Shown: in pieces, positions 4,781-55,132 of the stretch
How the letters are laid out: each line of letters starts with the position of its first letter
Position numbering within the stretch: the stretch's first letter is position 1
Assembly (NCBI GenBank): GCA_049975385.1
Contig: JBNGDO010000005.1
Span: 1-59,296 of the forward strand
Direction: 5' to 3'
Length of the DNA stretch: 59,296 nt
From: Anaerolineae bacterium
GTDB taxonomy: Bacteria > Chloroflexota > Anaerolineae > B4-G1 > SLSP01
Made by a program: the position numbers and the translations under genes
The notes under the pieces: generated by a model
Told to the model about the DNA's origin: nothing
The model's input: the letters and a program-made list of their open reading frames with translations, nothing else
Database searches by the model: none

Positions 4781-4781
4781 G

Positions 4782-4844: not shown

Positions 4845-4864
4845 CACATAGGGAGGAGAAGAAT

Positions 4865-6987: not shown

Positions 6988-6990
6988 ATG

Positions 6991-7073
6991 GTAACGAGTA
7001 ACGTGTAACTGGTAATCAGTAACCAGTAACAGGCACTCATTCCCAATTACTAATTTCTAATTACTTATTACAA
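6991..7073 (+). repeat. intercistronic heptamer-array hairpin
   Basis: Six GTAAYNN heptamers at 6991-7032 (GTAACGA GTAACGT GTAACTG GTAATCA GTAACCA GTAACAG). Then four ATTWCNN heptamers at 7046-7073 (ATTACTA ATTTCTA ATTACTT ATTACAA). Then AGGAGG and the ATG at 7094. Confidence 0.6.
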
Positions 7074-7093
7074 ATTTCCAGGAGGCATAACTC

Positions 7094-9811: not shown

Positions 9812-9832
9812 CCCATTCTTTCCTAAATAAAA

Positions 9833-9865
9833 CCGCCCCTGGTCATTCCAGGGGCGGTTGCTTTT
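9833..9865. terminator. bidirectional intrinsic terminator between fdhA and focA
   Basis: CCGCCCCTGG / CCAGGGGCGG 10-bp stem with loop TCATT. A-run upstream and TTGCTTTT downstream. Confidence 0.8.
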
Positions 9866-9911
9866 GCTGATTTACCGAATCGCCGATTCGCTCTTTTGCT
9901 GATTCGCCTAC

Positions 9912-10796
9912 TTACTTCTTCTGCCCGCGCAGATAGATGAACCAGTAGACGACGGCGACCATAACCACACCGCCGATGATGTTGCCGATGGTCACGGGGA
10001 GCAGGTTCTTGAATAGGAAGTTGCCCCAGGTGAGGTTGGCGTAGTCGCCGGCCGTCTTGCCGATGTTCGACCAGAAACCCGCGTTAGCCCCCGCCTTCAC
10101 GAACAGGCCGATTGGGACGAAGTACATATTGGCGACACTGTGCTCAAATCCCGCCGCCACGAAACCGGCGATGGGGAAGATGATGGCGAGGATTTTATCG
10201 GTGGTTGTGCGGGCCGAGAAGCACAGCCAGACCGCCATACACACCATCGCATTACACATCATACCAAGCGCAACCGCTGGAATGAATTCCAGGTTGCATT
10301 TGCCGTTGGCGATGTTGAGCGCAGTCAGACCCACTGCGCCGCCCCCAAACGTCCACTGCTTGCTGAGGAACACCACCGCCGCGGTTGCCACCGAGCCGAC
10401 GAAGTTACCGGCGTAGACAATGCCCCAGTTGCGCAGCATTTGCGTAAACGTGATTTTCTTGTTGACCCAGGCCATTGCAATCAGGTTGTTGCCGGTGAAC
10501 AGTTCCGCGCCACCGACGATGACGAGGATAAGGCCAAGGCAGAAGACCAGCCCACCGAGCAACCGTTGAATCCCGTAGGGGACGGGATTTGCGCCGCTGC
10601 CGAGGCCGGCCAGCACGGTGGTGCAGAAGATCGCCCCCAGGCCGATGAAGGCCCCGGCGAGGATCGCCAGCGCGAACAATTGCAGTGCGTCGCCGGTGGC
10701 TTTCTTCACGCCCACCGCTTCCGCTTTGGCGGCCATCTCCGCCGGTAAAAGGGAGTCTAACTTAATTTCGGGTACAGGTACTGATGAATTCGCCAT
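9912..10796 (-). CDS. focA: formate/nitrite transporter (FNT) family channel
   Basis: 294-aa polytopic protein with FNT-like sequence throughout. The formate assignment rests on genomic context. Confidence 0.8.
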   Translation of the reverse strand: MANSSVPVPEIKLDSLLPAEMAAKAEAVGVKKATGDALQLFALAILAGAFIGLGAIFCTTVLAGLGSGANPVPYGIQRLLGGLVFCLGLILVIVGGAELFTGNNLIAMAWVNKKITFTQMLRNWGIVYAGNFVGSVATAAVVFLSKQWTFGGGAVGLTALNIANGKCNLEFIPAVALGMMCNAMVCMAVWLCFSARTTTDKILAIIFPIAGFVAAGFEHSVANMYFVPIGLFVKAGANAGFWSNIGKTAGDYANLTWGNFLFKNLLPVTIGNIIGGVVMVAVVYWFIYLRGQKK

Positions 10797-10840
10797 GTGA
10801 AATTTCCTCCTTGAAGATGAAAGATTGGATTACAACGGTT

Positions 10841-10856
10841 CCATTGTATCAAATGG
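10841..10856. promoter_or_regulatory. 16-bp palindrome upstream of focA (possible operator)
   Basis: CCATTGTATCAAATGG: inverted CCATT/AATGG arms, 45 nt upstream of the focA start. Confidence 0.25.
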
Positions 10857-10923
10857 CTAAAAAACGGCAAGTGACTTTTGGACGTGGTACAATAGGAATA
10901 AAGGTGTGGACTTTTTAGCTCTC

Positions 10924-10985
10924 AACGGATTCAACGGAATTTAACGGATATTTTCCGTGACACAGAGAGCACAGAGCACTCAGAG
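10924..10985. repeat. short tandem repeats in the focA/mobA divergent spacer
   Basis: AACGGA repeated at 10924, 10933 and 10943, then a complementary TCCGT. CACAGAG-type units at 10961, 10970 and 10979. Confidence 0.4.
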
Positions 10986-11054
10986 TGTGCGTTGTCCGCA
11001 ACGCCCTTTCTCTGTGACCTCGGTGGCTATTTTCAAGGGAGTTGGCATAGCCGT

Positions 11055-11690
11055 ATGACAATCACATTGAGTGGTGTTATCCTGGCCGGAGGGTGCAGCA
11101 ACCGGATGGGCATGGATAAGCGCTTTCTGACAATTCAAGGACAACCGTTGGTCGTCTGGGTCGTGGAGCGCCTGCGCGCTTTGGTGGATGAAGTGATCGT
11201 GGCGGCGCTCGACCCTGCGGTGTTCGACGGCATCGCCGCGCGCGTAGTGACGGACGTTTATCCGGGCCAGGGCGTTCTAGCCGGGCTGCACGCCGGTCTG
11301 GCGGCGGCGCGGTCCGAATGGGCCGTCGTTGTGGCAGGGGATATGCCACTCCTCAATCCGGCGCTGCTCCGCGCAATGCTGCGCCTGGCGCAGGATGGCG
11401 AAGCTGACATCGTCGTGCCGCAATGGCAGGGCAATCTGGAACCGCTTCATACCCTTTACCGCCCGTCCGCTTGCGCCCCCGCCGCCGAAGCCGCGCTCCA
11501 GGCGGGCAAACGGCGCATCGTCGCCTTTTATCCCGACGTGCGCGTCCACGTTATGCCGCAGGCCGAAGTGGTCTGCTGGGACCCGGAAGGCCGTTCGTTC
11601 TTCAATGTGAACACGCCAGAAGACTGGTCACTGGCGTTGCAACAACTTCAATTCAACCAATCCCCAATCGCTCCGGGTAGGTGTGAATGA
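11055..11690 (+). CDS. mobA: molybdenum cofactor guanylyltransferase
   Basis: N-terminal GVILAGGCSNRMGMDK motif. The ATG at 11055 is preferred over the ORF start at 10992. Confidence 0.8.
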   Translation: MTITLSGVILAGGCSNRMGMDKRFLTIQGQPLVVWVVERLRALVDEVIVAALDPAVFDGIAARVVTDVYPGQGVLAGLHAGLAAARSEWAVVVAGDMPLLNPALLRAMLRLAQDGEADIVVPQWQGNLEPLHTLYRPSACAPAAEAALQAGKRRIVAFYPDVRVHVMPQAEVVCWDPEGRSFFNVNTPEDWSLALQQLQFNQSPIAPGRCE

Positions 11691-12441
11691 CCATTTTCTG
11701 CCCGCGCAAGTATCCCACGGTCGTGATGCCCCAATCCGTGGCAAGTTTCACCGCCGTGGATGTGACAGCCCGCAGCGTTGCGACAACGGGGACGCCCATC
11801 CGTGCTGCTTTGCTGACCATCTCGGAGGAAAGCCGTCCGGTGGTTAACAACATATCGCCCTCAGTAGCGCGCCCGTCCAGCAGGCAGAAGCCCAGCAGTT
11901 TGTCCAGCGTGTTGTGCCGTCCCACGTCCGTCATTATGGCGATGGTCTCGCCCGCGGGCGTGAAGAGTGCGCTGGTATGGACGCCATGACTGTGGGGATT
12001 GCGTGCGGTGGCATCCTGCAGGACCTGCGCCATCTCGAAGAGGCGCGCAGGGTACAGAACAGGCTGCGCGGGCAACGGTGACGGCGGCGCGTACAAATCT
12101 CCCAACACCACGCCGCGCCCACAGCCGGATGTAAAGAGGGCATTATGAGCAGCTAGACGCGGCTCCACGCTAGCTTTGTCGTTGGCTAACCACACATCGG
12201 CGCAGGTTTCACCTTCAGAAAAATGTATTTTGGCAATGTCTGCCGGTGTATCAATGATGCCGGCGTAGGCTAGAAATCCGACAACCAGCGCTTTCCGTTT
12301 GGCCGGTGAGGCCATCAACCGCACTAAGGATTGCCCATTGACATAGATACAGAACTCTTCTTCGCCAGGTAATGTATACGTTTGCGTCGTAACTTCACCC
12401 TGACGCCAAATATGGACAGGATATTCAAAATTGTCAGACAT
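11653..12441 (-). CDS. fdhD: formate dehydrogenase accessory sulfurtransferase
   Basis: GRHNTLDKLLG motif and FdhD-like length. Its 3' end overlaps mobA convergently. Confidence 0.85.
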   Translation of the reverse strand: MSDNFEYPVHIWRQGEVTTQTYTLPGEEEFCIYVNGQSLVRLMASPAKRKALVVGFLAYAGIIDTPADIAKIHFSEGETCADVWLANDKASVEPRLAAHNALFTSGCGRGVVLGDLYAPPSPLPAQPVLYPARLFEMAQVLQDATARNPHSHGVHTSALFTPAGETIAIMTDVGRHNTLDKLLGFCLLDGRATEGDMLLTTGRLSSEMVSKAARMGVPVVATLRAVTSTAVKLATDWGITTVGYLRGQKMVIHTYPERLGIG

Positions 12442-20837: not shown

Positions 20838-23189
20838 TCAGCCGGTTCCCTCAGCGAGGCGGATGAGGGTGTTGTGGAGGGCGTCGCCGGGATCGACTTT
20901 CTCGGCCAGGACGCGGAGCACGAGGGCCAACGCGCTTTCTCCACGAGACGTGCGTTGCTCAAGCAGCGCGTCGATGAGCGCATCCACCCGCGCTTCCCGA
21001 TTGCGCGCGCTGTCGGGGATGCGGTCGCGCCAGGGATAGATAGAGCCGTGCATCGGTGAAAAGCGTACGCAGGGCGGCGTCGCTGTCGAGCGGGCCGCAG
21101 CGTAGAAGAGCCTCGCGCAGCCGGGGGAGCACTCTACCGGATAAGCCGCTGCCGCGTCCGCCGCGTACCTCCACCCCGTCCAAAAGGTGCCGCACGTTGA
21201 TCATTTCGGTGAGGCCAGGGGGTGGGAATTCGGTAAACCCTTTGCGCTCCAGCTCACGCAACCACCTGTAATCCACCGGTGGGATTTCAGGATGCCCCGG
21301 CACGGGAACTTTCTCGGCGGCTTCCAGCCCCGCGAGGCTGGCGTGGATGCCTCCCAGGTGCTCGCGGATGCGGGTGAGCAATTCACGGCGACCGTAGGCC
21401 GGCCCGCGCACGGCGATGGTGATGCGGTTGGCGACAAGATCAGCCTTGACCAATGCCTCATTGCCGTCGCAGGCCAGCAGAACGCCGGTGCGCCAGACGG
21501 GACGCACATCCGCAGCGGGAATATGCCGGTGCATCCGCACGATGAGGCGGGTGAGGATGCTGCCGGGCAGCACGGGATAATGGACTTCAAAACGCAGTGC
21601 GCTGTTCCACGCGCCGGTATCCGGTTCCTCTTTGGGCAGCAGGTCGGGGATGAGGTAGGTGTTTGGGCGGTCGGGGAGTTCGTAGCAGAGTTCGAACTTC
21701 TGCATCATATCCACGATGAACATGCGCTTTTCCTGGTAGGGTTCGTCATCGAGGATGCGGGCAAGCATGTCCCAGGTGAGGATGCCCTGTTCGGCGAAGA
21801 GCAGGCGGGTGTTGAGGATACGGTAGACGCCCTGCGTCACCCACTCCGGGTTGAGGATGTTGGTGGTTTCCAGGCGGGGATCGGGGAAGTGGAGGACGAC
21901 GCCCAGGTCGTGGAGGAAGCCCAGGAGCACGCGCTGGCTGTCGGGATGATCCACCTTTTTCTCACAGCAGAGTTCCGCGTAGCGGCTGTAGGGGATGTAG
22001 TCCGCGTCCAGCGTTTCGAGTTCGGCTTTCACGTCGAACCAGGTCGTGACCAGCGGATCGGCGACGTGGGGCATAAGGTTGATTTGTTTCGCTACTGCCG
22101 ATCGGAGGTCGGCGATCCCAGCGCCAGTCGCGCAGGACGTATCGAGGATGGTCGGGACGGCAGGATACTTCGCCAGCAGGCCGCGCCGGTCGAGGTCGAG
22201 CGGGTGCTGGTCGGTTTTGTTGCCGACGACGAGGATGGGCGAATCCCCACCGAAACTGCGGATGAGCGTGAGCCAGTAGTCGAGGCGGTTTTCGGCTTCG
22301 CTGTAGCGGCTGTCGAACACCAGCACGTACAGCGTGCGCTTCGTTAGAAAGAACTGGTGCGTCGCGTGCATGATCTCCTGCCCGCCGAAATCCCACACGT
22401 TCACCCGAATTTGCCTCCCCTTTTCTTCCCCCCGTCGGGGGGTATTGAGGGGGGGAACCACCGGTGAATTGCGATGCCCTCCGTCTTCTCCGAATTAGGA
22501 TCAAACGAGCCATAGAGCAAGCGATTGACAAGCGATGTTTTGCCAACGCTGCCCTCGCCGACGAGGACAAGTTTGACTTCGTTGAGGGGGCGCTTTTGCC
22601 CGGCGAGATAGTCGAAGTAGGCGTGAAGGATGACTTGGGCGTCCTTGGGATTTTCCAGAATTTCAGGAGGGAGGGGGAGGCCGGGATTTCTGCGGAGATC
22701 AAGGTACTGCAAGGCGGTCAACAGGCCGATCTCATAGGGAAGCGTGTTGAGTCGTCCACCTTGATAGTTCGGGGGAAGGTTCTCGGGTTCAGTGGCGACT
22801 TCCCGGAGACGATTATCCAGGGTGACGGGTTTGGCGACGGTTTCACAAGAACGCCCCCCAAGATACGAGCTGGTTTACCACCTTCGAATATTTCCCAGAC
22901 CCTAGGACCTGCAACAGAGAGAGTTGTCAGGTCTGTCAACTGGCCAATCTCTGGAGGGAGGGTCGTTAGGCTGTTGGCGCTGAGATTAAGGGATTTTAGG
23001 GGTGATCAACCGGCCGATCTCCGGGGGAAGAACTGTGAGTTGATTGTAGCTGAGGTCGAGGGATTGCAGAGTGATCAACCGGCCGATCTCTGGGGGGAGT
23101 TCGGTGAGACCCTGGTCGCGGAGGTCGAGCTCGTTCAAGCCGTCCGCGACGGCTCGGTCTATGAGTTTGAGCAGTTCATCTTGAGTCAT
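20838..23189 (-). pseudogene. LRR-Roc(GTPase)-COR protein with helical C-terminal tail, broken by at least four frame disruptions
   Basis: Fragments found: LRR (LTELPPEIGRLITLQSLDLSYNQL), P-loop GEGSVGKTS, VWDFGGQ, NKTD, a long COR-like region, and a tail ...PWRDRIPDSARNREARVDALIDALLEQ. Frame breaks lie at the G4 run 22999-23002, within 22740-22930, at the G7 run 22449-22455 and at the GATAGATA duplication 21035-21042. Confidence 0.75.
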
Positions 23190-25609: not shown

Positions 25610-25641
25610 CTATTGACAATTTGTTAATAGTGATGTAAAAT
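25610..25641 (+). promoter_or_regulatory. near-consensus promoter with overlapping 21-bp palindromic site (putative PadR::NifX operator)
   Basis: TTGACA (25613-25618), 17-nt spacer, TAAAAT (25636-25641). CTATTGACAATTTGTTAATAG (25610-25630) matches 17/21 positions of the site at 52448-52468. Confidence 0.6.
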
Positions 25642-25683: not shown

Positions 25684-25908
25684 ATGCCGAGATTTGATGG
25701 AACTGGTCCACGTGGTGCGGGCGCAATGACCGGACGTGGTGAAGGCTATTGCGCGGTTGCCTATCCAAAAGGCAGCCGGCCGTATGGCTACGCCGGGATT
25801 CAGGGAAGGCCCATAGGTGGCTTTGGATTCATGCGTCGATTCAGTCCCCTCCGCCGTTTTGGGCGTGGTGTCCGTGGCGGTAGACGGGGACGACGGGCGC
25901 GCTGGTAA
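25684..25908 (+). CDS. DUF5320-family Gly/Arg-rich small protein
   Basis: MPRFDGTGPRGAGAMTGRGEGYC N-terminus is typical of DUF5320. Arg/Gly-rich tail. Confidence 0.7.
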   Translation: MPRFDGTGPRGAGAMTGRGEGYCAVAYPKGSRPYGYAGIQGRPIGGFGFMRRFSPLRRFGRGVRGGRRGRRARW

Positions 25909-26038: not shown

Positions 26039-26347
26039 ATGATGCCAGGTGGAGATCGAACCGGACCGCAAGGCATGGGACCGCGCACGGGGCGCGGACT
26101 AGGCGATTGCGCTCCTACAGATCAACCGCGTCTGGGCTTCGGCTACGGCGGCTTCGGCTTTGGCCGTGGGCGTGGTTGGCGTAACTGGGCGCGTGCAACC
26201 GGGTTGCCCCGGTGGCTCCGTTTCGGAGGATGGGGAACAGCCCCATCACCGGCTGATGAGTCCGCGATGCTCAAGGCGCAAGCCGATCAATTACAGGCGC
26301 AGTTGGATGCCGTGCAACAACGGCTGGCAGAACTGAGCAACGAGTGA
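26039..26347 (+). CDS. DUF5320-family small protein with C-terminal coiled coil
   Basis: MMPGGDRTGPQGMGPRTGRGLGDC, a GFGYGGFGFGRGRG stretch, and the C-terminal heptad-like LKAQADQLQAQLDAVQQRLAEL. AGGAGG lies upstream. Confidence 0.75.
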   Translation: MMPGGDRTGPQGMGPRTGRGLGDCAPTDQPRLGFGYGGFGFGRGRGWRNWARATGLPRWLRFGGWGTAPSPADESAMLKAQADQLQAQLDAVQQRLAELSNE

Positions 26348-26351
26348 ACGT

Positions 26352-26444
26352 CTTCACCCAGTGAGGGCCTTCACTCCGTAAAGGCTTTCACTGGGTGAAG
26401 TTCTTTAATCCTGCCGCCGACCCTGATGTTACCAGGGTCGGCGG
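26352..26444 (+). terminator. tandem hairpins after the DUF5320 genes
   Basis: CTTCACCCAGTGA / TCACTGGGTGAAG (26352-26400) followed by TTCTTT. CCGCCGACCCTG / CAGGGTCGGCGG (26414-26444). Confidence 0.6.
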
Positions 26445-26646
26445 TATTGCTTGTCGGGGTGGCGAATACGACGGGTGTGTTCACTTTTTGGGCAAAGCGG
26501 GTGTCGCGCGCACTCCCTGGCTGGTAAATTAGCCTAACGCCCACGATTGGGCGGCGTGAAATACACCCAACCCTACATCGCATGCGGCAATTTGCTCATT
26601 CCAAGGTATAATTAACGGATATTCGATCTCAGAGGCTATACTATAC

Positions 26647-27804
26647 ATGAAAACACGGTTCTACTACAATTTACTCTTGGGTTTGTGTTTGTTGGGCAGT
26701 TTGCTGGCGTCGCCGGTCACTGCTGATACGCCAATTGTTCATGCAGTGATATTCTACTCGACGTCGTGCGGGCATTGCCATCAGGTGATCACGGAAGTGT
26801 TGCCGCCCCTGCTGGAAGAATACGGCGATCAACTCGTCATCGTCGGCGTTAATGTCGCTGACGCTGGGGGGCAAGCGTTGTACCAGGCCGCAATTACACA
26901 GTTCGCGATCCCTCAAGAACGTCTGGGGGTGCCCACCCTCATTATTGGGGATCATGTGCTGGTTGGTTCCCTTGAGATTCCCGAACAACTGCCTGGACTG
27001 ATCGAGGACTATCTGGCAGATGGGGGCAGGGATTGGCCGGCCATCCCTGGTCTGGTGGAGGGGCTGGAGGCGAGCGCCGCCACGCCTGAACCGGAGACAC
27101 CATCGCCACAACCTACGACTGTGGTCGAAGCAACGCCCGCAACCGAAGCGACAGCGGCCCCCATTGGACCAGCGGCTCCCACCGCGACGGCGGATCCGGT
27201 CATACCTGGTATCGACACCGATGACGACAACTGGTTTACCCTATACGCCCGTGATCCTTTGGGCAATAGCATCTCCGTTCTGGTGTTGATTGGGATGCTC
27301 ATTAGCGTTCTCTATCAGGCTATGGCACTGGCTCACGAACCCCGTGAAGCTGCATTACATCGCTGGCAATGGGCCATCCCACCGCTGGTCGTAGTGGGGT
27401 TAATCGTGGCAGGATATCTGGCTTACGTGGAGACGCAGCAAGTCACTGCCGTCTGCGGGCCGGTGGGCGATTGCAATGCCGTGCAACAGAGCGAGTTTGC
27501 GCTGCTTTTTGGCTTCTTGCACATCGCTGTCCTTGGGGTGATTGGGTACGTCGGCATCGGCGTAGCCTGGGCTGTGGCGCGCTTTGGATCTGGCCTGTGG
27601 GTGCACCTGGCGAAGCTGGCATTGGTCGGCATGGCCTGGTTCGGCGTGCTCTTCTCCATTTATCTGACCTTTTTGGAGCCATTCGTCATCGGTGCGACGT
27701 GCGCTTGGTGTCTCACCTCGGCGGTGCTGATGACGCTGTTGTTTTGGGTGATTGCTCCGCTCGCGCGCCCAGCCTTGGCTGCGGTGCGTGCATCACGTGA
27801 CTAA
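26647..27804 (+). CDS. thioredoxin-like domain fused to a VKOR (vitamin K epoxide reductase) membrane domain
   Basis: Signal peptide and CGHC Trx motif at the N-terminus. C-terminal polytopic part has the AVCGPVGDC loop Cys pair and CAWC. Confidence 0.75.
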   Translation: MKTRFYYNLLLGLCLLGSLLASPVTADTPIVHAVIFYSTSCGHCHQVITEVLPPLLEEYGDQLVIVGVNVADAGGQALYQAAITQFAIPQERLGVPTLIIGDHVLVGSLEIPEQLPGLIEDYLADGGRDWPAIPGLVEGLEASAATPEPETPSPQPTTVVEATPATEATAAPIGPAAPTATADPVIPGIDTDDDNWFTLYARDPLGNSISVLVLIGMLISVLYQAMALAHEPREAALHRWQWAIPPLVVVGLIVAGYLAYVETQQVTAVCGPVGDCNAVQQSEFALLFGFLHIAVLGVIGYVGIGVAWAVARFGSGLWVHLAKLALVGMAWFGVLFSIYLTFLEPFVIGATCAWCLTSAVLMTLLFWVIAPLARPALAAVRASRD

Positions 27805-35496: not shown

Positions 35497-35611
35497 GTGT
35501 GTATTTCACTTTTGGGGAAATAGTTAGATCCATACCTGATAAGCTCGGTTTTTTGGCAGTTTTGGCCCGATTCGGGCTCAACAAGCCCGGTATGCAAAGG
35601 CCAAAACTGCA
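35497..35611 (+). repeat. 115-nt repeat element, copy A (upstream of the MalT-like regulator)
   Basis: About 80% identical to the reverse complement of 52477-52590. Contains a 12-bp stem GCAGTTTTGGCC (35556-35567) / GGCCAAAACTGC (35599-35610). Confidence 0.7.
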
Positions 35612-44392: not shown

Positions 44393-45280
44393 TTACGTTG
44401 CAGCCGTGTCCATTGGCTTTTCATGAATAGAGCGCGAGCGACTCTGACGCACGATCACACTGCCTACCGGCGCACCCAAATCGCGCCCGATAACCGGACA
44501 TTTGACCTGCAAGAGGCAGAATACGCGCGGACCGGCCTCGCTCAAGGTCTCGTAGTTGGCCTGTCCCTTGGCGATGACCAACGGGGCAGCGGCGTAGATC
44601 TGGCGGAAGTCCTCGGAACACAGGCTCAGAATTGTACCGGGTGCATCGGAACCGTTGTCGATAAGGGTCGCGCACGTTTCTAGCCCCGCGGCCAGTGCGT
44701 CCCCACGCGTTGCGTCATTGAGCGTAGGGCCGCCTTTTACGACATAGGTCACCGGTAGTGTAAGTGTCTCGATCAACACACGATCGAAGACCGTCTCCCC
44801 GGCGTTGTCGGCCAGATAGAGCACGCGATCGGCGGCGTCCAGCGCCGACCGCAAGGCTGCCAGATCGTCGATGGCGAAGGGCGCAGCCAACACCCGCTCC
44901 ACCGCTGTCCAGAGATCGGCCAGTTCATCGGATAGGGCAAAGTCGATGATATTACCTGCGATGCTCAACCGTACGGCCGTTTCCAACGGATCGGTACTCT
45001 CGGCGACAAGGCCCTTGAGGCGAGGATAAAGCGCCAGGGCCGCGCGGGTGCTGTGCGCTTTAAGGTCGCGGTAAGGGTCACTATGCCCCATATGCTCACG
45101 CACGATGCGATGCACAGCATAGGCGATTTCCGGCGGCGTTTTGCCAGGCGGCAATGCCTGCAACAAAGCCAGGGTTTGTCCCATAATGGCATGCTGCTGA
45201 GCATCTTCCGCGCCTACTTGCCGTGCCGCTCTCAAGGCCTGGCTCAGGAAACAGGGATAACAATCGAGGTAAGTGCGCAT
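44393..45280 (-). CDS. DUF89 (ARMT1-like damage-control phosphatase) family protein
   Basis: MRTYLDCYPCFLSQAL N-terminus and a LADNAGETVFD motif. Confidence 0.7.
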   Translation of the reverse strand: MRTYLDCYPCFLSQALRAARQVGAEDAQQHAIMGQTLALLQALPPGKTPPEIAYAVHRIVREHMGHSDPYRDLKAHSTRAALALYPRLKGLVAESTDPLETAVRLSIAGNIIDFALSDELADLWTAVERVLAAPFAIDDLAALRSALDAADRVLYLADNAGETVFDRVLIETLTLPVTYVVKGGPTLNDATRGDALAAGLETCATLIDNGSDAPGTILSLCSEDFRQIYAAAPLVIAKGQANYETLSEAGPRVFCLLQVKCPVIGRDLGAPVGSVIVRQSRSRSIHEKPMDTAAT

Positions 45281-46346: not shown

Positions 46347-47228
46347 TTATACTTTTCCCAATCCCTGCTTCTGCAACATAGCCCATGCTGCCCGCAAGGC
46401 CTCCGCTGCAGGAGAGTTGCCCGCCGTAACCGGCTCGCCGCGCACCATTGCATCGGTGATCGTGGGATCGTAAAGCAAGCGTCCCACCAATGGGATGTCG
46501 TTTGCGGTGCAATAGGTGGTGACGGCCTCTGCCTGCACAGGGCTGAGATCGGCTTTGTTGAGTAACACCGCTGCTGGGATTTGAAAGTGTGTTGCCAGCC
46601 CCAGAGCGCGCTCCAGGTCGTGCACGCCGGAAACTGTCGGCTCGGTGACGATGAGCGCTAGATCCGCCCCGGAAAGCGCGGCGATGACAGGACAGCCGAT
46701 ACCCGGTGGCCCATCCACCAACAGCAGGTCGGCCTCGTCGTCGAAAGCGCGCAGCCGCGCCATCTGCTTGACCAGCGTGACGAGCTTGCCGGAATTCTCT
46801 TGCCCGGCGAAGAGATGCGCGTGGTAGAGCGGGCCGTAGCGTGTCGTAGCGACAAACCACTGCCCGGCGCGTTGCGGTTGCATCGCAATGGCATTAGCAG
46901 GGCACTCGTAGAAACACGCGGCGCAGCCTTCACAGGCGATAGGGTCTACGGCATAAGTGTCGCCTGGCACTACCGCATCGAAGCGACAGACCTCGGCACA
47001 GCGCCCGCAGGCGATACAGCGCGCGGCATCGACGACGGCGATCCTGCCGCCGGTAAAATCGTTCGTTTCTTGCGTGACGGGCGACAGCACCAGGCCCAGA
47101 TTGGCCGCATCCACGTCCGCGTCAGCGAGCACGATACGGTAATCCTGCGCTGCCAAATGCGTCAGCGCTGCCGTCACTGTCGTTTTACCCGTCCCACCCT
47201 TGCCACTTAGAATAACCAGTTGTTTCAT
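46347..47228 (-). CDS. MinD/Mrp-superfamily ATPase with inserted 2x[4Fe-4S] ferredoxin domain (COG1149 type), copy 2
   Basis: SGKGGTGKTT deviant Walker A. CIACGRCAEVC and CEGCAACFYECP motifs. Confidence 0.85.
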   Translation of the reverse strand: MKQLVILSGKGGTGKTTVTAALTHLAAQDYRIVLADADVDAANLGLVLSPVTQETNDFTGGRIAVVDAARCIACGRCAEVCRFDAVVPGDTYAVDPIACEGCAACFYECPANAIAMQPQRAGQWFVATTRYGPLYHAHLFAGQENSGKLVTLVKQMARLRAFDDEADLLLVDGPPGIGCPVIAALSGADLALIVTEPTVSGVHDLERALGLATHFQIPAAVLLNKADLSPVQAEAVTTYCTANDIPLVGRLLYDPTITDAMVRGEPVTAGNSPAAEALRAAWAMLQKQGLGKV

Positions 47229-47259: not shown

Positions 47260-47949
47260 CTAGTAAATGTAAGGTAGCAGGCGCCAGGAGCGCTGGCAAT
47301 ACGTTTCCCACGCTACCCCGAAGGTCTGATGAAGAAGCGCTTCTTCATCGTGAATACGAAAGAGAACTATACCGAGTACCGGGATGAAGGCCACCAGTCC
47401 CACCCACGAGCGAAACAGCAGCGCCAGGCCCGGCGTCGCCAGCAGCACGCCCAGGTAGCGCGGATGCCGCAGAACGCCATACAGCCCGGTGGTAATCAGG
47501 CGATGATCTTTTTGCAGCGTCACGTCGGGACTGTAAAAACGGCCAAGAGCAATGCCAGACCAGAGCACCAGACCGAGGCCCAGTCCGACACCCAGCAGCC
47601 CCACCCAGCGCAAGACTTCTCCGCCGGACCACACGGCCAGATCGCGCCGGTCGGCAAAGGGTAGGAAAAACAAGCCGCCGTACATCGCCAGAATGACCAC
47701 GACTTTGACAATGGTCTGCCGCGTCACGCGCTGCCCGCTCTCGTCTTTCCCGCCATGGATTTGCCCTGATGAGATGATCGCGTGATAGACGACGCCCAAT
47801 CCAAGCAGCAGGGTCAATCCCGCGTAACCCGCGCGCGGCGCGCTGGCGAAGAAGCCCAGCAAATCGCCCAGTCCCCACCCCAACAACACGGGAACCAAGT
47901 AAATGATCAATGTGCCGAATAGAAAGCGCAAAGCACGTAAGTATTTCAT
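47260..47949 (-). CDS. ICMT/PEMT-like membrane methyltransferase family protein
   Basis: GLYGVLRHPRYLG motif and 5-6 TM segments. Confidence 0.65.
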   Translation of the reverse strand: MKYLRALRFLFGTLIIYLVPVLLGWGLGDLLGFFASAPRAGYAGLTLLLGLGVVYHAIISSGQIHGGKDESGQRVTRQTIVKVVVILAMYGGLFFLPFADRRDLAVWSGGEVLRWVGLLGVGLGLGLVLWSGIALGRFYSPDVTLQKDHRLITTGLYGVLRHPRYLGVLLATPGLALLFRSWVGLVAFIPVLGIVLFRIHDEEALLHQTFGVAWETYCQRSWRLLPYIY

Positions 47950-48443
47950 TTTTCGTCAAATCTCCGGTCCGCTTGATGGGTATGGACGTTCGCCTGTACG
48001 CGCTCTAACCAGCCCACATGGTCGGCTGCGTCACCATCAAACGCCGGGACGTAGGGCTTGAGATCGAGAATGGGCGTGCCGTCCACCATATCCACGTTTT
48101 CCAGGTGCAATATGTTCCCCTCGCATTCCAGCAGCCGCACCACCGAGAGGCCGATGGGATTGGGGCGCGCCGGAGCGCGGGTGGCGAAGACGCCACGGGG
48201 TTCGGTATCCATAAACGGCGTGACTAACAGTCGCGGCGCAGGCGCATGGTGGAAGTGGTAGAGTACGATCACGTGAGAAAAGCCTTCCAGGTCTTGCAGA
48301 CCGGGCGCGAATTCTGGGTCAATCTCGGCTGTGCCGCGCACGCCGTCCGCACCCGCCGGCTGGATAGGCATCCCGGCGACGTCGTTGAACGGCGTGTGCA
48401 AGATGCCGATGGGTCGGTATTGGATGAGGCGCGCGTTGGGCAT
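47946..48443 (-). CDS. TsaA/TrmO-family (UPF0066) SAM-dependent methyltransferase-fold protein
   Basis: GFSHVIVLYHFHH, RPNPIGLSVV and DGTPILDLKPYVP motifs. Confidence 0.8.
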   Translation of the reverse strand: MPNARLIQYRPIGILHTPFNDVAGMPIQPAGADGVRGTAEIDPEFAPGLQDLEGFSHVIVLYHFHHAPAPRLLVTPFMDTEPRGVFATRAPARPNPIGLSVVRLLECEGNILHLENVDMVDGTPILDLKPYVPAFDGDAADHVGWLERVQANVHTHQADRRFDEK

Positions 48444-48451
48444 TGACCGGA

Positions 48452-49429
48452 CTACTCCTCAGCCGCGATCACAAAGACTTGCCCCAGGCCGCTCGATAGG
48501 TAATCCGCGCCAAACGCCTCCGCGAAGGCGCGGCGCGCAGGATCTCCGGTGCAGTGGCTTGGGGCGATGCGTTGCACGCCGAGTTCCTGCAGTTCGGCAA
48601 TCGTGCCAGCGATCTGCGCGGCGCTGGCGCCGCCCAGATGGAAACCGCCGAGTGCCAGATACACGTTCTCATCTAGCTCAGTCTTCGCCTGGCGCACCAG
48701 CGTGGCGATGCCGGGGTGCGCACAGCCTGTGATAACGACTAGGCCACACGGTGTTTCCAACGCCAATGCCTGCTCGCGGATTGGATTGCCGAGTTCGCCG
48801 GTGGTATGCGCCCCTGCGGCGACCTGTTGTGGTTCTGTCACTTCCACCAGCGTCGCGCCGGCCCGGCGGACGGTATTCTTGATACCCGCCGGGAATGAGT
48901 TAGGCACGTACACGGTGACGTCCGGGTTTTCCGCAAGGAAGGCTGCCAGTCCGCCGGTGTGATCGCCGTGGGCGTGCGAGAGCACGACGGTGCGCACCGC
49001 CTGCGGGTCGAGACCAAGCGTGCGCATGTTTTGCAAGAGGATATCGCCCTTGCCGCCGGTATCGAAGAGCAGCGGGTGTTCCATGCCCTCCACCAGGCAG
49101 GCAAAGCCCCAATCGGTTTGTAAGCGTGGGTCGTGGGCCACATTGTCATAGACTACAGTAATCGTAAGCATTGTTCCGGTTTTCATAGGTTGCGTTCCAG
49201 GTGTTGCTGTGAAGGTTGCGCTTGGTGTCGCCGTGGGGGGTATGGCTGTTGCGGATGGCATCAATGTGGGCGTTGCTGTAGACGTGGGTACGCGCGTCAA
49301 GGTTGCCGTGGGAAGTACCGTGGGCGACGCTGTGGGCACGGTCGTTGGTGTGGACGTGGCGGGCATCGTGCGCGGCGCACAACTCACCAATCCCACAACT
49401 AAGCCAACAAGCAAAAGCCGCGCCCACAT
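48452..49429 (-). CDS. exported MBL-fold hydrolase lipoprotein
   Basis: Lipobox LVSC, an approximately 60-aa Thr/Pro/Ala linker, then LSHAHGDHTGG. The start at 49429 was chosen because the longer ORF overlaps the upstream gene. Confidence 0.7.
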   Translation of the reverse strand: MWARLLLVGLVVGLVSCAPRTMPATSTPTTVPTASPTVLPTATLTRVPTSTATPTLMPSATAIPPTATPSATFTATPGTQPMKTGTMLTITVVYDNVAHDPRLQTDWGFACLVEGMEHPLLFDTGGKGDILLQNMRTLGLDPQAVRTVVLSHAHGDHTGGLAAFLAENPDVTVYVPNSFPAGIKNTVRRAGATLVEVTEPQQVAAGAHTTGELGNPIREQALALETPCGLVVITGCAHPGIATLVRQAKTELDENVYLALGGFHLGGASAAQIAGTIAELQELGVQRIAPSHCTGDPARRAFAEAFGADYLSSGLGQVFVIAAEE

Positions 49430-49431
49430 TC

Positions 49432-50316
49432 CTAATCCCCAGTCCCTAATCCCTTCACTTGCTCCCACAGCGCCACGAAACGCTCGCGATATTCGGGGCG
49501 AATGGCGATAAGCGATTCGCCGTTGGCGATACCCTCTGCGATGGCGCGTTCCAGCGGGATGCGCAGCAGTATGGGCAGGTTCTCGGTGGCGCAGTAAGCG
49601 TCCACACCATCGTCGCCCACCCCGTCGCGGTTGACGACGACGGCGACGGGTAAGCCAAGTTCGTCGCGGGCCACTTCCACCGCCACCTGCAGATCGTGCA
49701 GACCGAAGGGCGTCGGTTCGGTGACGAGTAGTACGGCGTCGGCCCCGCGCATAGTTTCGACGACGGGACACGATGCACCGGGTGGCGCGTCGAGGATGAT
49801 GGGCCGCTCATTCGCCTCTGGTGGAATCGCCCACCCTTTGAGCTGGCGTATCACCGGCACGGCCATCGCTTCGCCCACATCCAACGTTCCATTGAAGAAC
49901 TCTACCTCACTCGTGCCCGCCTTGGCGACACCTTTTTCCAATATCCCCATCAGATTTAGCGTTTCGTGGATCGCATTCTCTGGGCATTGGCGCGTGCAAC
50001 TCCCACAGCCGTGACACAGTTCGGGGAAGACGAGGACCTGTTTCCCGATGACGGTGATCGCGTGGTACTCACACACCTCGGCGCAGCGCCCGCAGGCGGT
50101 GCAGCGCGCTATATCCACCACGGGGATCAACAGCCCCACATCGCGCTGCGCAGTTATCTCAGGGTGCAGAAACAGCGCGGCGTTGGGTTCTTCGACGTCA
50201 CAATCCAGAAAAAGGGGGGAAGAAGCGGGATGTGCGGTGGCAAGGCTAAGCGCCAGGCTCACCGCTACCGTTGTTTTGCCGGTTCCGCCCTTGCCGCTGG
50301 CAATGGCAAGTTTCAT
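49432..50316 (-). CDS. MinD/Mrp-superfamily ATPase with inserted 2x[4Fe-4S] ferredoxin domain (COG1149 type), copy 1
   Basis: SGKGGTGKTT. CTACGRCAEVC and CHGCGSCTRQCP motifs. Confidence 0.85.
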   Translation of the reverse strand: MKLAIASGKGGTGKTTVAVSLALSLATAHPASSPLFLDCDVEEPNAALFLHPEITAQRDVGLLIPVVDIARCTACGRCAEVCEYHAITVIGKQVLVFPELCHGCGSCTRQCPENAIHETLNLMGILEKGVAKAGTSEVEFFNGTLDVGEAMAVPVIRQLKGWAIPPEANERPIILDAPPGASCPVVETMRGADAVLLVTEPTPFGLHDLQVAVEVARDELGLPVAVVVNRDGVGDDGVDAYCATENLPILLRIPLERAIAEGIANGESLIAIRPEYRERFVALWEQVKGLGTGD

Positions 50317-50322
50317 CGAAAG

Positions 50323-50520
50323 CTATTCCCGGATCATCTGCGTGCCACATTTTGGGCACTGTTTTGCGGTGCAGGGCTGTCCGGGAACGTGCGGCTCACG
50401 ATGCCCACACGCCGGGCAAACACACTGGCCCCCCGGCCCAGCGGCTGTCCCTCCCATCCGCCCTGGGCCTTGTCCCTGTCCTCGTCCGCCACCGCCTCCT
50501 CGTCTGGTTCCACGTCCCAT
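50323..50520 (-). CDS. 65-aa Gly/Arg-rich protein with CxxC...CxxC zinc-ribbon
   Basis: The ATG at 50520 follows AGGAGGT. Sequence MGRGTRRGGGGGRGQGQGPGRMGG...CVCPACGH...CPKCGTQM. Confidence 0.55.
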   Translation of the reverse strand: MGRGTRRGGGGGRGQGQGPGRMGGTAAGPGGQCVCPACGHREPHVPGQPCTAKQCPKCGTQMIRE

Positions 50521-50538
50521 TTCGCTACCTCCTGAAAA

Positions 50539-50568
50539 TAGTCTGATAGTCATTAGTCCGATAGTCCT
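50539..50568 (-). repeat. TAGTC tandem array (7/8-nt alternation) in the 5' leader of the zinc-ribbon gene
   Basis: Plus strand TAGTCTGA TAGTCAT TAGTCCGA TAGTCCT. It ends 5 nt from the SD complement. Confidence 0.6.
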
Positions 50569-50628
50569 GCGATCATTTTTATGATCAAGACTGCGCCTCA
50601 GGTTTGGTGACACTTCTTTGAAAGCGAC

Positions 50629-51081
50629 TCAAAGTCGCACTACGACCGCCCGCGCCAGCGATGCCGTGCTTGCCGCCCGGCTATCGCCGAGATGACGGAC
50701 CCCACAACTTTGCTCCCCCGTGGGCGCAGCATATAGATGTCCAAGCGTGTTTAGCACAAGCGGTGCCGCCTGGATGGCCAATTGTGCACCGGCCGCAATC
50801 ACCGTCGCCAGCGGATTCGTGTCCGGAGAGGATGATACAGGAGTGGCCACATCTGTGGGGGCGTATTCCGGGACTTGCGTCTCTGTGGGAACAGCTTCGA
50901 TCTCCAACACCGGCTGTAACGCTCCGGCCGGGCAGGCCTGGATACAGGCTTCGCACCCTTCGCATAGCGCATCGTCCAGATGGGCTGTGCCTTCCACCAG
51001 GGTCAGCGCGCGGGTTGGGCAAACTTCGATGCATGCGCCACATCCGGTACAACGGGTCACGTCAAGCCATACTGCCGTCAT
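50629..51081 (-). CDS. 2x[4Fe-4S] ferredoxin with about 90-aa low-complexity C-terminal extension
   Basis: CTGCGACIEVCP and CEGCEACIQACP motifs. The ATG at 51081 has an AGGAA 6 nt upstream (the ORF-track start at 51105 is TTG). Confidence 0.75.
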   Translation of the reverse strand: MTAVWLDVTRCTGCGACIEVCPTRALTLVEGTAHLDDALCEGCEACIQACPAGALQPVLEIEAVPTETQVPEYAPTDVATPVSSSPDTNPLATVIAAGAQLAIQAAPLVLNTLGHLYAAPTGEQSCGVRHLGDSRAASTASLARAVVVRL

Positions 51082-51121
51082 TGCAGTTTCCTTTCGTTGA
51101 CTCAATTACAAAATCTAAAAT

Positions 51122-51496
51122 CTATTCGTGGCCGTGTTCGACGCTCTCCTTGCAGGGGGCCGCGCCCTTCAGGTCACCGCCCAGATAGCGGGACAATGAT
51201 GCGCGCACGGTTCCCGCCGCGCCGGTCGCCGCTTCGATGCCATATTGCCGGAAGAGGGCGACGGCTCGGCCACCCATTCCGCCGGAGAGCATCACCTGTG
51301 CACCCAGACTGTGGATGAAGGCGGGGACCTGTCCGGGTTCGTGCCGGGAGTAGTATGGATTGGCGATCGTCTCTACAGTGCATACTTCTTGCCCCTCGGT
51401 TTCGACCAGGGTGAAGTACGGGCAGCGCCCGAAATGGGGGCTAACCTGGGCATCCAGGCCATTGGTATCCAACACAGAAATTGCAATTTTCGTCAT
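51122..51496 (-). CDS. NifX/NafY-like (dinitrogenase FeMo-cofactor-binding domain family) protein
   Basis: KIAISVLDTNGLDAQVSPHFGRCPYFTLVE is typical of the family. Cys/His tail APCKESVEHGHE. The ATG at 51496 lies 6 nt after AGGAG. Confidence 0.8.
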   Translation of the reverse strand: MTKIAISVLDTNGLDAQVSPHFGRCPYFTLVETEGQEVCTVETIANPYYSRHEPGQVPAFIHSLGAQVMLSGGMGGRAVALFRQYGIEAATGAAGTVRASLSRYLGGDLKGAAPCKESVEHGHE

Positions 51497-51506
51497 CAAA
51501 GTCTCC

Positions 51507-51566
51507 TAGTCATTAGTCAGATAGTCGTTAGTCATATAGTCCTTAGTCGGATAGTCCTTAATCGGA
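51507..51566 (-). repeat. four tandem 15-nt units (paired TAGTC heptamer/octamer) in the NifX-like gene leader
   Basis: Plus strand TAGTCATTAGTCAGA TAGTCGTTAGTCATA TAGTCCTTAGTCGGA TAGTCCTTAATCGGA. The last unit abuts the SD. Confidence 0.65.
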
Positions 51567-51610
51567 CTGTCGAATAGTCGCAGGCACTCGGCCTTGCGGT
51601 AAATCCGAAC

Positions 51611-52420
51611 TCACCTACGTCCGCGGCGATGACGCCCGCCACCCATGCCCACGTGGCCAGCGCCAGGGGTTTCCAGGCGCGCCAACTGCCCGGCGTTGAA
51701 GGCCGCGATGGCCTCGCGCACGGTCGCGCCTTCCATGCGGTAGGCCGGGATGCCCGCCGCCTGGATGACGCGGAAGGCATTCGGTCCCAGGTTGGGGGCG
51801 ATCACGGCCCCCACGCCCTTCTGCAAGACAGTCTGGGCTGCCTGGACGCCCGCGCCACCGGGTGCGTCGATTGCCGGATTGGGCAGGGCCTCGAAGTCCA
51901 GCGTTTCGGGATCGACCAAAATGAACACTGGGCTGCGCCCAAAGATGGGGCTGGTCGGCGCATCCAAATCGGTGCCATTAGCAGGAATAACAAGTCGCAT
52001 CGTCATCTCCTCAGTTGTGAATGAATAGTCCGCCGCCGGAACGACACTGTCCGGCGCGAGTTCATCGTGCAGTGCTCGCAAGTATTCGAGCACCTGTTGC
52101 GTATCCTGGAGTTGTGCAATGCAACAGGCCAGCACTGCGTGTCCGGCAGGAGCCAGGGCATAGACGCGGCGCGGCGGACCTTGGGTCTCCTTTTCATCCC
52201 ACGTGGACGTGATCCACCCCCGCTCTTCCATCCCACGCAGCGCGCGATAGATCACGGTGGGGGCCAGGAAGTCCAGGCCGAACTCGGCCATACGGTTCAA
52301 AAGGGTGTAGCCATGGGCTGGAGATTGTTCCAGCAAGAGCAACAATGCCGGATCGAGAAACTGTCCCATCCGGCGGTTGCAGTCGCGTCCATTGCATTGC
52401 TGTCCCCCGCGATATCGCAC
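51611..52420 (-). CDS. PadR-family winged-helix regulator fused in frame to a NifX/NafY-like domain
   Basis: FLDPALLLLLEQSPAHGYTL...PRRVYALAPAG (PadR), then MRLVIPANGTDLDAPTSPIFGRSPVFILVD (NifX-like). No stop lies between them. The GTG at 52420 lies 6 nt after GGAGG. Confidence 0.75.
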   Translation of the reverse strand: MRYRGGQQCNGRDCNRRMGQFLDPALLLLLEQSPAHGYTLLNRMAEFGLDFLAPTVIYRALRGMEERGWITSTWDEKETQGPPRRVYALAPAGHAVLACCIAQLQDTQQVLEYLRALHDELAPDSVVPAADYSFTTEEMTMRLVIPANGTDLDAPTSPIFGRSPVFILVDPETLDFEALPNPAIDAPGGAGVQAAQTVLQKGVGAVIAPNLGPNAFRVIQAAGIPAYRMEGATVREAIAAFNAGQLARLETPGAGHVGMGGGRHRRGRR

Positions 52421-52437
52421 CGTGCACCTCCAAGTTT

Positions 52438-52468
52438 AGTATAGCATCTATTGCCAATCTGTCAATAG
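52438..52468 (-). promoter_or_regulatory. promoter of the PadR::NifX operon with overlapping 21-bp palindrome
   Basis: Minus strand CTATTGACAGATTGGCAATAG (52468-52448). The -35 TTGACA lies within it. A 16-nt spacer precedes the -10 TATACT (52443-52438). Confidence 0.55.
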
Positions 52469-52476
52469 AGTATGGG

Positions 52477-52590
52477 TGCGGTTTTGGCCTTTGATTATTT
52501 AGCTTGTTGAACGCGGATCGGGCCAAAACTGCCACGAAACCGCAATTATCAGGCATCGATCTGACTATTTCCCCAAAGTGAAACGCACCC
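52477..52590 (-). repeat. 115-nt repeat element, copy B (upstream of the PadR::NifX promoter)
   Basis: The reverse complement aligns with 35497-35611 at about 80% identity, including the GCAGTTTTGGCC / GGCCAAAACCGC stem. Confidence 0.7.
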
Positions 52591-53220
52591 AAAGTCGACA
52601 TAGCTTAAATTTTGCATGTTCAGGTCAGTCGTTTTCTTATCCCAGTATAGTGGAACTCACACGAAGTACAATGCGAGTTAACGGCCGTTTTTGCGAAAGG
52701 TCAACACACTTGATATAGCATCGAGGGGGTATTGCCGAGGTTTGTTGATATTTATACCGTAAGTTCTCAATCCAGTGTCTGCTGCAACGTCTTCATCAAC
52801 GTCGCGCACAAAATGCCACACTACAGGAATCAACACGACATCTCCTTCTGGAGCGGCAACCAAAGGCGCGAGTTTAGCTGCCCCGGTGCGTATGATGTTG
52901 AGGAGTTGCAAGGATAGCATACGTCTGCGCAGCGACAGCTCGACCACTTGCGTATGAAGTGCAGCCATCTGCGCCGTCGTTTTGATCCCAAAACCTGCTC
53001 ACACCGTCTGCATGTCCCCCATCAGGCTTCGCCATCGTGTAGCCCACCAGCACACCGCTAATTTCGGTGGCGACTTTAGCCCGATATTGGAGCATTGTAC
53101 GGATTTGCCTCAGGAAAGCCCGCCATTGCTACTGGGAACTGGCAAAAGCCTATTTTGTTACGAGATACCGTGGCCCTACTCGCAAAGAATTATCCACACT
53201 TAATGAAACGTCCCCAACCC

Positions 53221-55083: not shown

Positions 55084-55132
55084 TCGAGAATCAAGAATCG
55101 AAAGGATTCTTGATTCTCGATTCTCGATTCTT
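55084..55132 (+). repeat. pstS-pstC intercistronic heptamer-array hairpin
   Basis: TCGAGAA TCAAGAA TCGAAAG, then GATTCTT GATTCTC GATTCTC GATTCTT. Perfect 15-bp stem 55085-55099 / 55105-55119 with loop GAAAG. Confidence 0.7.

Follow-up and report, generated by a model that had tools for sequence, protein, structure and literature searches.

The minus-strand gene at 51611..52420 of contig JBNGDO010000005.1 (assembly GCA_049975385.1), from an uncultured Anaerolineae bacterium, raises the question whether a single open reading frame (ORF) encodes a PadR-type transcription regulator fused to a NifX-like domain, and whether the same frame also delivers the second domain on its own. The whole stretch analysed, 59,296 nucleotides long, is referred to as the window. 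An earlier note, drawn from the letters of the window, had described the gene as a one-component sensor with an internal start. Comparison of orthologous loci indicates that the fusion is real and under selection, and that the internal start probably also gives a second product, namely the free 129-residue domain. We also hold it to be slightly better than an even bet that in full length the protein serves as an autorepressor dedicated to an ORP-like gene cluster, one that would sense metal-sulfur or thiol status and yield two products.

The gene comprises 269 codons in one unbroken frame, as the note had read it. It starts with GTG 52420, 6 nt downstream of the Shine-Dalgarno (SD) sequence GGAGG at 52427..52431, and orthologs share this layout; like every gene of the cluster described below, it lies on the minus strand. 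A basic N-terminal arm (aa 1-17, 52370..52420) carries the two cysteines noticed before, C9 and C14. The arm is followed by a PadR winged-helix domain of the short single-domain (PadR-s2-like) type (aa 18-121, 52058..52369). Pfam PadR (PF03551) matches aa 26-98 with an E-value of 6.2e-15 and 55.4 bits, above the gathering threshold of 27. The AlphaFold2 model, built from 74 homologs, has the winged helix-turn-helix fold with C-terminal dimerisation helix (helices 12-32, 37-47, 54-66 and 91-121, strands 70-74 and 85-89), and Foldseek places this half on 5dym, 6abt and LmrR with target-normalised TM scores of 0.75-0.87. The assignment of the N-terminal half to the PadR family is therefore retained. 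An acidic, Thr- and Pro-rich linker of 19 residues (aa 122-140, 52001..52057), predicted to be disordered (pLDDT <50), leads to the PF02579/IPR003731 (Di-Nase, ORP/IssA-like) domain (aa 141-250, 51671..52000). Here Pfam Nitro_FeMo-Co (PF02579) matches aa 155-242 (E 5.1e-18, 65.6 bits against a cutoff of 26.3). The protein ends in a conserved Gly/Arg/His-rich cationic tail, ETPGAGHVGMGGGRHRRGRR (51614..51670), which is also predicted to be disordered. The model is confident for aa 12-121 and 141-250 and disordered at 1-9, 125-139 and 255-269; its pTM of 0.45 leaves the mutual orientation of the two domains undefined. No solved PDB chain found by Foldseek spans both domains, the best query-normalised TM being 0.41.

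In close relatives the two halves are encoded by separate genes that follow each other in this order, so that a single ORF might in principle be an assembly or sequencing artefact that joined two neighbours. We assign this explanation practically no probability and have rejected it. The same two-domain architecture was found in more than 100 clusters at 90% identity in a search of 5.8 billion proteins, with fused ORFs coming from NCBI, JGI, ENA and Logan assemblies, and about 30 distinct loci carry it at the DNA level. A Logan contig from an independent public sediment-metagenome run covers the junction (51920-52265) without any indel. Fused homologs range from 90% down to about 42% identity and stem nearly all from Anaerolineae/Chloroflexota metagenome bins, where they bear automatic names such as 'NifB/NifX family molybdenum-iron cluster-binding protein' or 'helix-turn-helix transcriptional regulator'. 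Among 103 full-length homologs the linker takes 12 lengths from 14 to 32 residues and is almost unconserved in sequence, and the frame is always kept. Both domains occur together in only about seven clusters among 1.84 billion representatives at 50% identity, and distant fused lineages exist (P0106, P0107, P0121-P0125, P0175), of which P0106, P0107 and P0121-P0124 add a DUF5320-type C-terminal coiled coil as a third part. By these counts the architecture is rare in sequence space yet recurrent.

The nature of the C-terminal half had been given as NifX/NafY-like. Membership in the PF02579/IPR003731 superfamily stands, whereas membership in the NifX or NafY family proper does not: by sequence and predicted fold the domain is of the ORP/IssA type. 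A profile search of the PDB returned 1eo1 (7e-30), 1rdu (6e-27) and 2wfb (1e-22), the closest PDB sequences being MTH1175 at the top, TM1290 and the Desulfovibrio gigas orange protein. Foldseek ranked ORP 2wfb first (TM 0.89, rmsd 1.4 Å, 36% identity), followed by TM1290 and MTH1175. All of these come from non-nif contexts. NifX and NafY carry NifB-co or FeMo-co, and a histidine of NafY has been implicated in FeMo-co binding. That the fusion is a genuine carrier of this kind, linking regulation to the supply of nitrogenase cofactor, would agree with the naming of PF02579 after the dinitrogenase FeMo-cofactor family and with the public annotation 'NifB/NifX family'. The NCBIfam NifX and NafY models, however, did not match at E-values up to 0.01, only PadR-type models matching the fusion protein. 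The layout is not that of NafY either, since the N-terminal half is a PadR domain. No nif or nitrogenase gene is present among the roughly 45 annotated ORFs across the window, and none was noted in related loci, which were screened against the window's own cluster proteins and not searched for nif genes. We therefore rejected the NifX/NafY assignment, to which we would give only a very slight chance.

What the domain binds may be judged from other members of the superfamily. ORP holds a non-covalent Mo-Cu-S cluster and MrpORP's Di-Nase domain a [3Fe-4S] cluster (PMC6345978), IssA binds thioferrate with the assistance of a cationic Gly-rich tail (PMC5524996), and FeMo-co is also among the ligands (PMC6345978; PMC5524996). 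By analogy, the C-terminal domain of the fusion may bind a metal-sulfur species, a role for which it is a candidate. Its own tail is about 19 aa long, Gly/Arg/His-rich with the motif HVGxGGGRHRRGR, and free of aromatic residues. Low-complexity segments rich in Gly and Arg and often containing Cys recur in the window (50323-50520, 25684-25908, 26039-26347, 52370-52420, 51614-51670); their carriers are a small four-Cys protein, the N-termini of DUF5320 proteins, the PadR N-terminal arm and the NifX-like tail. This recurrence suggests a shared anionic ligand or partner. Public libraries also contain proteins of 941-1516 aa with two to four closely related NifX-like domains (P0126, P0128, P0131, P0132, P0134, P0190, P0239, P0257).

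Is the frame entered a second time? At 51998..52012 the hexamer GAGGAG (52012-52007) stands 6 nt before ATG 52000-51998, and this ATG is codon 141, the first of the C-terminal domain; the AGGAG-ATG pair reported earlier is present as described. A short product from ATG 52000 would be the free 129-residue domain, of roughly 14 kDa, with the N-terminal peptide MRLVIPANGTDLDAPTSPIFGR. Within the 13,396 codons of the window, in-frame GGAG-N5-9-ATG occurs five times, as chance would produce it, and significance of the motif from the window sequence alone was therefore rejected. Since such pairs are not rare within genes, this one gains weight only through conservation among orthologs. For this comparison, 160 loci were gathered by scanning GTDB species genomes and JGI metagenomes. 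An ATG at codon 141 is kept by 27 distinct fused sequences, 25 in the clade that shares the four cysteines discussed below and two (L018, L106) that are distant. Every one of the 25 has GGAG 5-9 nt upstream, and in 24 of them it occupies positions -12 to -9, the run GAGGAGGAGGA of L100 being shifted by 3 nt. Among those 24 the encoded residues vary (EEV, KEA, TEA, AEV, EEM) and the codons are always nnG-GAG, with a following codon that begins with G in 21 cases. Elsewhere in the same genes only 52% of Glu codons are GAG, third positions are G in 33% of cases and the frequency of GGAG per position is 0.006. Moreover, the motif is homologous to the working ribosome-binding site of split relatives: in close split loci the PadR gene ends in a stop, followed by AGGAGG or AAGGAGG, 7 nt, and the ATG of a NifX-like gene in a different frame.

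The homology to a former gene boundary could also be read the other way, namely that the internal SD-ATG is an unused, decaying relic and that only one product is made. The methionine is a natural first residue of strand β1, inherited from the ancestral start, and a pair of this kind arises by chance about once per 2,700 codons of the window. Six distinct fused sequences have lost the ATG (AGG twice, GTG twice, GCG, ATT), and four of these six have also lost GGAG. Other observations speak against this reading. Three of the four GGAG losses are due to synonymous GAA/AAA codons that keep Glu or Lys, and the loss of ATG goes with the loss of GGAG (hypergeometric p ~5e-4, a value that is indicative only because the lineages are not fully independent). 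The motif stands in the same place in 24 of the 25 ATG keepers of the four-Cys clade down to about 59% protein identity, and nnG-GAG-Gnn is kept through differing residues in a linker whose sequence and length are not conserved otherwise. A relic consequently appears unlikely to us, and use of the SD-ATG as a second start, as proposed before, has gained strong comparative support from its conservation in orthologs and from its homology to the start of the separate gene. A consensus scan of 48300-52700 showed no sigma-70 promoter inside the gene for the NifX-like half. Transcript evidence is uninformative on the second start: a single metatranscriptome, from rhizosphere, holds contigs with 85-90% identity, which show that relatives of the fusion gene are transcribed and which give no 5' ends.

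The note had called for a comparison of orthologous loci, and there PadR and NifX-like proteins are indeed encoded by separate adjacent genes in close as well as distant relatives. Split genes occur within the clade of the window itself (L015, L019/L107, L023, L108) and, in the same order, further away (L017, L024, L043, L057, L070), and in many other Anaerolineae a PadR gene lies a few kb upstream within the same cluster. The first gene of the cluster in L014, L020, L105 and L022 is a free NifX-like one, preceded by the same promoter and operator. L016, a Thermoflexales bin (650-1084), has lost the whole PadR domain in frame and retains promoter, operator, first start, the end of the linker and the internal SD-ATG. 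A related-strain contig (run X1) skips 215 nt of the window (52010-52226), which removes about aa 66-137 of the PadR half. One bin (Zod_Metabat.1288) contains both a fused cluster (L009) and a free-NifX cluster (L020) with the same operator. Two paralogous clusters, each with this operator, are often found in single bins (L003+L004, L008+L010, L009+L020), and L019 has two PadR genes; the regulator thus probably acts in trans on several loci. In a rough neighbour-joining tree the split and free forms are nested inside the fused clade, which implies that separation has been repeated and tolerated.

Which DNA the PadR half would bind is indicated by its own promoter. A sigma-70-type promoter at 52438..52465 (minus strand), with TTGACA at 52465-52460, a 16-nt spacer and a TG-extended TATACT at 52443-52438 (11/12 matches), is the only such site found by the consensus scan of 48300-52700. 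It is overlapped, over the -35 element and spacer, by the palindrome CTATTGACA-N3-TGTCAATAG at 52448..52468. The window copy has one mismatch (CTATTGaCA-gat-TGgCAATAG, arms matching at 8 of 9 positions), and its left arm contains the -35 TTGACA. Within the close clade the palindrome occurs in 30 of 32 distinct regions upstream of orthologs; PadR relatives farther away have it, if up to 5 mismatches are allowed, in 32 of 48 such regions. A TATACT-like -10 always follows it at a distance of 4-5 nt. Conservation extends to the outer CTA/TAG and the right arm, which lie within the promoter spacer, a region on which RNA polymerase makes no sequence demand, and a bound protein is thereby indicated. 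The window holds two copies where 0.00 were expected. The suggestion that a palindrome over the gene's own -35 reflects autoregulation has thus been strengthened, and on this comparative evidence it is very likely that the palindrome, a conserved candidate operator, serves autoregulation. Repression is presumed from the overlap of operator and -35.

The second copy (25610..25630, one mismatch) likewise provides with its left arm the -35 of an 11/12 promoter, at 25613-25641. Behind it follow two DUF5320 genes on the plus strand (25684-25908 and 26039-26347; Pfam 3e-7 and 5e-26) and then Trx-VKOR, a thioredoxin-VKOR fusion (26647-27804). Relaxed searches with up to 5 mismatches or with the core only gave no credible further copy in the window. 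In other genomes a second operator precedes DUF5320 (L001, L013, L021), OsmC (L012, L013) or Trx-VKOR (L014, L020) genes, and relatives encode NifX-like-DUF5320 fusion proteins (P0108-P0116). DUF5320 is tied to the pathway by both the shared operator and these fusions. As judged from operator positions, the regulon is small and coherent. A GC-rich 14-bp hairpin at 26412-26446 (plus strand), between the second DUF5320 gene and Trx-VKOR, could act as a terminator or attenuator that splits the operator-controlled unit. No convincing terminator lies between the fusion gene and the next gene, with no minus-strand site in 51500-51610, so that an operon is assumed. Across the whole window no known RNA family matched Rfam at gathering score.

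An intergenic element about 108 nt long is present twice, once just ahead of the padR promoter (52477-52583, plus strand) and once, inverted, between ZIP transporter and MalT-like regulator genes (35504-35611). The two copies are 82% identical; the element contains a long inverted repeat, GTTTTGGCC...GGCCAAAAC, that forms a hairpin of 13 bp, and it has no Rfam match. In a source-like sediment run the contig depth of this element is about 316 compared with 10-50 nearby, which marks it as multi-copy there.

The signal that would be read is less readily assigned, because a second candidate sensing site exists in the PadR half itself. C9 (52396-52394) and C14 (52381-52379) are conserved in 82 of the 85 homologs that include the N-terminal arm. 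A vicinal pair, C99-C100 (52121..52126), which the earlier account did not mention, is located at the start of the long C-terminal helix α4 and conserved in 100 of 103 homologs. The four cysteines occur only in a clade with at least 62% PadR identity, in its fused and split members alike; in distant relatives the arm is rich in Arg and Gly and often contains a single Cys, and position 100 is Trp or another residue. At the dimer interface of short PadR proteins, α1 packs with its N-terminal end on the C-terminal helix. It is therefore plausible that four thiolates form a site by which the geometry of the dimer is controlled, and by analogy with PadR architecture C9/C14 could meet C99/C100. These residues are thus a clade-specific candidate for a second sensing site.

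Consequently, we propose the following mechanism. A PadR dimer would bind the 21-bp palindrome over its own -35 and spacer as well as the one at the DUF5320 promoter and thereby silence the two transcription units. This repression would be relieved or tightened by a metal-sulfur or thiol signal, read either by the C-terminal IPR003731 domain together with its cationic tail or by the four-Cys site formed by the arm and helix α4. The mRNA would give the full-length regulator from GTG 52420 and the free IPR003731 domain from GGAG-N6-ATG at codon 141. The free domain corresponds to the protein that relatives encode as a separate gene and would probably pair with NifX2, the product of the following gene, in the ORP-like machinery. 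Tethered and free copies would then compete for one ligand or partner (NifX2 or the ORP-like complex), and the competition would couple expression of the cluster to the amount of unoccupied ligand or partner. Repression, the nature of the signal, the competition and the identity of the sensing site are all inferred. The earlier proposal that cofactor occupancy of the NifX-like domain controls DNA binding is one possibility within this scheme; the four-Cys site could equally sense. In a more daring version, the ratio of tethered to free domain would make the circuit self-titrating and tune the ORP-like machinery to a pool of inorganic Fe-S, thiometallate or thioferrate-like species, and the four cysteines would in addition ligate an Fe-S cluster or thiophilic metal across the dimer. 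We regard this version as improbable; if true, a metal-sulfur prosthetic group would be seen for the first time in a PadR-family regulator, and an IPR003731 domain for the first time as the input of a transcription factor.

Several observations weigh against an autorepressor that senses through its fused domain and yields two products. In the window protein, as in 36 of 103 homologs, Ser replaces the Cys that is usual in the FGRC motif. Six fused lineages have no internal ATG, so that the second product is dispensable in some. The disordered 19-residue linker (pTM 0.45) argues against rigid interdomain allostery. Split, PadR-deleted and free variants under the same operator indicate that the covalent tether is not essential. 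Finally, the direction of regulation, repressor rather than activator, is deduced solely from the overlap of operator and -35. Since the linker is flexible and the tether dispensable in some lineages, titration, sequestration or ligand-driven oligomerisation is favoured over rigid allostery.

Some of the same facts would also fit another arrangement, the main rival, in which the PadR module is the sole sensor, its four cysteines forming a thiolate-rich metal/Fe-S site or a redox switch, and the IPR003731 domain is the first structural protein of the operon, fused almost neutrally and supplied mostly via the internal ribosome-binding site. In its favour, members of the clade have the four cysteines together whether they are fused or split, and the fused clade encloses split, deleted and free forms. 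Conservation of the internal ribosome-binding site, disorder of the linker and the presence of the thiol/redox genes Trx-VKOR and OsmC in the regulon also speak for it. A neutral fusion, however, would not be expected to keep its frame over 12 linker lengths in about 30 distinct lineages, as opposed to 4-5 split ones. Furthermore, fusion arose or persisted in the several distant lineages listed above (P0106, P0107, P0121-P0125, P0175), and distant PadR relatives regulate the same cluster without the four cysteines. We consider the PadR module as sole sensor a possibility to be taken seriously, if a doubtful one, and continue to prefer the dedicated autorepressor with two products.

The gene content behind the fusion gives this autorepressor its presumed target. 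By its genes, the fusion heads an ORP-like cluster of the Desulfovibrio orp type. The next gene (51122..51496) encodes NifX2, a second, free-standing PF02579 (Di-Nase) protein with an FGRC motif that nearly always follows the first; this pairing of a NifX-like gene with NifX2 is a conserved one in lineages from Chloroflexota to archaea. Of the MrpORP model NF041136, NifX2 matches the Di-Nase part alone, with 65.7 bits against a cutoff of 450. Then follow a 2x[4Fe-4S] ferredoxin-domain protein (50629..51105), the small Gly/Arg-rich protein with a four-Cys zinc-ribbon-like motif (50323..50520), which is kept in orthologous clusters, and a MinD/ParA-type ATPase with inserted 2x[4Fe-4S] (49432..50316, Orp3/Orp4-like). 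Further downstream are a metallo-beta-lactamase-fold lipoprotein (48452-~49430), a TrmO-like protein (47946-48443), an ICMT-like membrane protein (47260-47949), a second MinD-Fer4 ATPase (46347-47228), a CobW-like GTPase (45280-~46200), a DUF89 protein (44393-45280) and an OsmC-like protein (43888-~44310). The pair of MinD-Fer4 ATPases is conserved in related loci.

Several intergenic spacers of the window (51507-51560, 4782-4843, 6989-7076, 10922-10949, 55105-55131) are filled by short tandem repeats whose period is 7, 9, 15 or 21 nt, the first of these between the fusion gene and the next gene. The orthologous spacers of the Anaerolineae loci L011 and L019 contain different heptamers, for example (CTCTCAA)n/(CTCTTAA)n in L011, and the repeats recall the heptanucleotide STRR repeats of cyanobacteria. 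A cluster for an NAD-linked formate dehydrogenase (3011-12441) encodes two NuoF-like subunits, a molybdopterin catalytic subunit, FocA, MobA and FdhD, which implies that Mo or W cofactors are in use in this organism; no link connects the operator with this cluster. At 20959-22461 (minus strand) a bacterial Roc-COR GTPase (Roc, COR-A, COR-B) is encoded, with a leucine-rich-repeat-like region upstream.

Within the library searched, no publication was found on the PadR-IPR003731 family, for which public annotation gives domain names only. New here are a PadR one-component regulator with an input domain undescribed for transcription factors and its conserved dual-start design; the locus does not define a new category of system. 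Clusters of IPR003731 proteins, MinD-Fer4 ATPases and DUF5320 are widespread in anaerobic bacteria and archaea, and the roles put forward even for the Desulfovibrio ORP complex are limited to Fe-S transfer and a link to cell division. A regulator fused to the cluster's own Di-Nase domain, with a sharp operator and a small regulon, offers an experimental entry point, as anything that alters its DNA binding would be a candidate for the physiological ligand or state of the whole system. In the manner of a 'Rosetta stone', it points to a common pathway for this PadR subfamily and the NifX-like pair and, by way of the shared operator and the NifX-DUF5320 fusions, for the DUF5320 family as well. The gene is also a natural case of a fusion that keeps the ribosome-binding site of the downstream gene, so that one ORF can deliver a tethered and a free copy of a domain, and the fused, split and deleted variants among close relatives could act as natural controls.

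Among known systems, the C-terminal half comes structurally closest to the Desulfovibrio ORP/Orp8 (2wfb; PMC6345978), a protein that has no DNA-binding domain fused to it. The Desulfovibrio orp cluster (PMC6345978) shares with ours an Orp3/Orp4-like pair of MinD ATPases, each with two [4Fe-4S], a small Cys-rich protein and further Di-Nase proteins, the Orp8-like single-domain ones here being the fused domain and the protein at 51122-51496. That cluster is controlled by sigma-54 and a cognate activator (PMC6345978), in contrast to the PadR-type candidate control and sigma-70-like promoter found here, and an MrpORP-type P-loop/Di-Nase fusion is missing from our cluster. IssA of Pyrococcus furiosus and 'IssX', as well as MTH1175, which is treated as IssA-type (PMC5524996), also bear on the fused domain: in IssA and 'IssX' the IPR003731 domain is likewise followed by an unstructured Gly-rich cationic tail. 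The tail of IssA, however, is aromatic-rich and comprises about 70 residues rather than about 19, and in our protein the domain is attached to a regulator. NifX, NafY and the C-terminal domain of NifB belong to the same Pfam superfamily, PF02579, and no nif context is present here.

With PadR proteins of the short type (LmrR, CdPadR_0991 5dym, Listeria 6abt, TM0937 2esh) the N-terminal half shares the winged helix, the long C-terminal dimerisation helix and the predicted autoregulation from a site over its own promoter. The half-site centres of the palindrome are 12 bp apart, which is the same geometry as in the PadR/LmrR operators ATGT-N8-ACAT, whereas the core here is TTGACA-N3-TGTCAA. The fusion differs from these proteins by the IPR003731 domain on a flexible linker, the Cys-x4-Cys arm at the N-terminus and the CC pair. 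In ArsR/SmtB sensors such as CadC, two Cys of the flexible N-terminal arm and two of a helix in the winged-helix core form an S4 site that controls DNA binding. As a lead only, the arrangement of C9/C14 and C99/C100 resembles this site; the protein family is a different one, and the helix pair is an adjacent CC instead of CxC. In-frame internal starts that yield a long and a short isoform are familiar from CheA-L/S, IF2 alpha/beta and ClpB. In contrast to these, what the short form would represent here is a transcription factor's sensor or partner domain, and its start would be the retained ribosome-binding site of a formerly separate gene.

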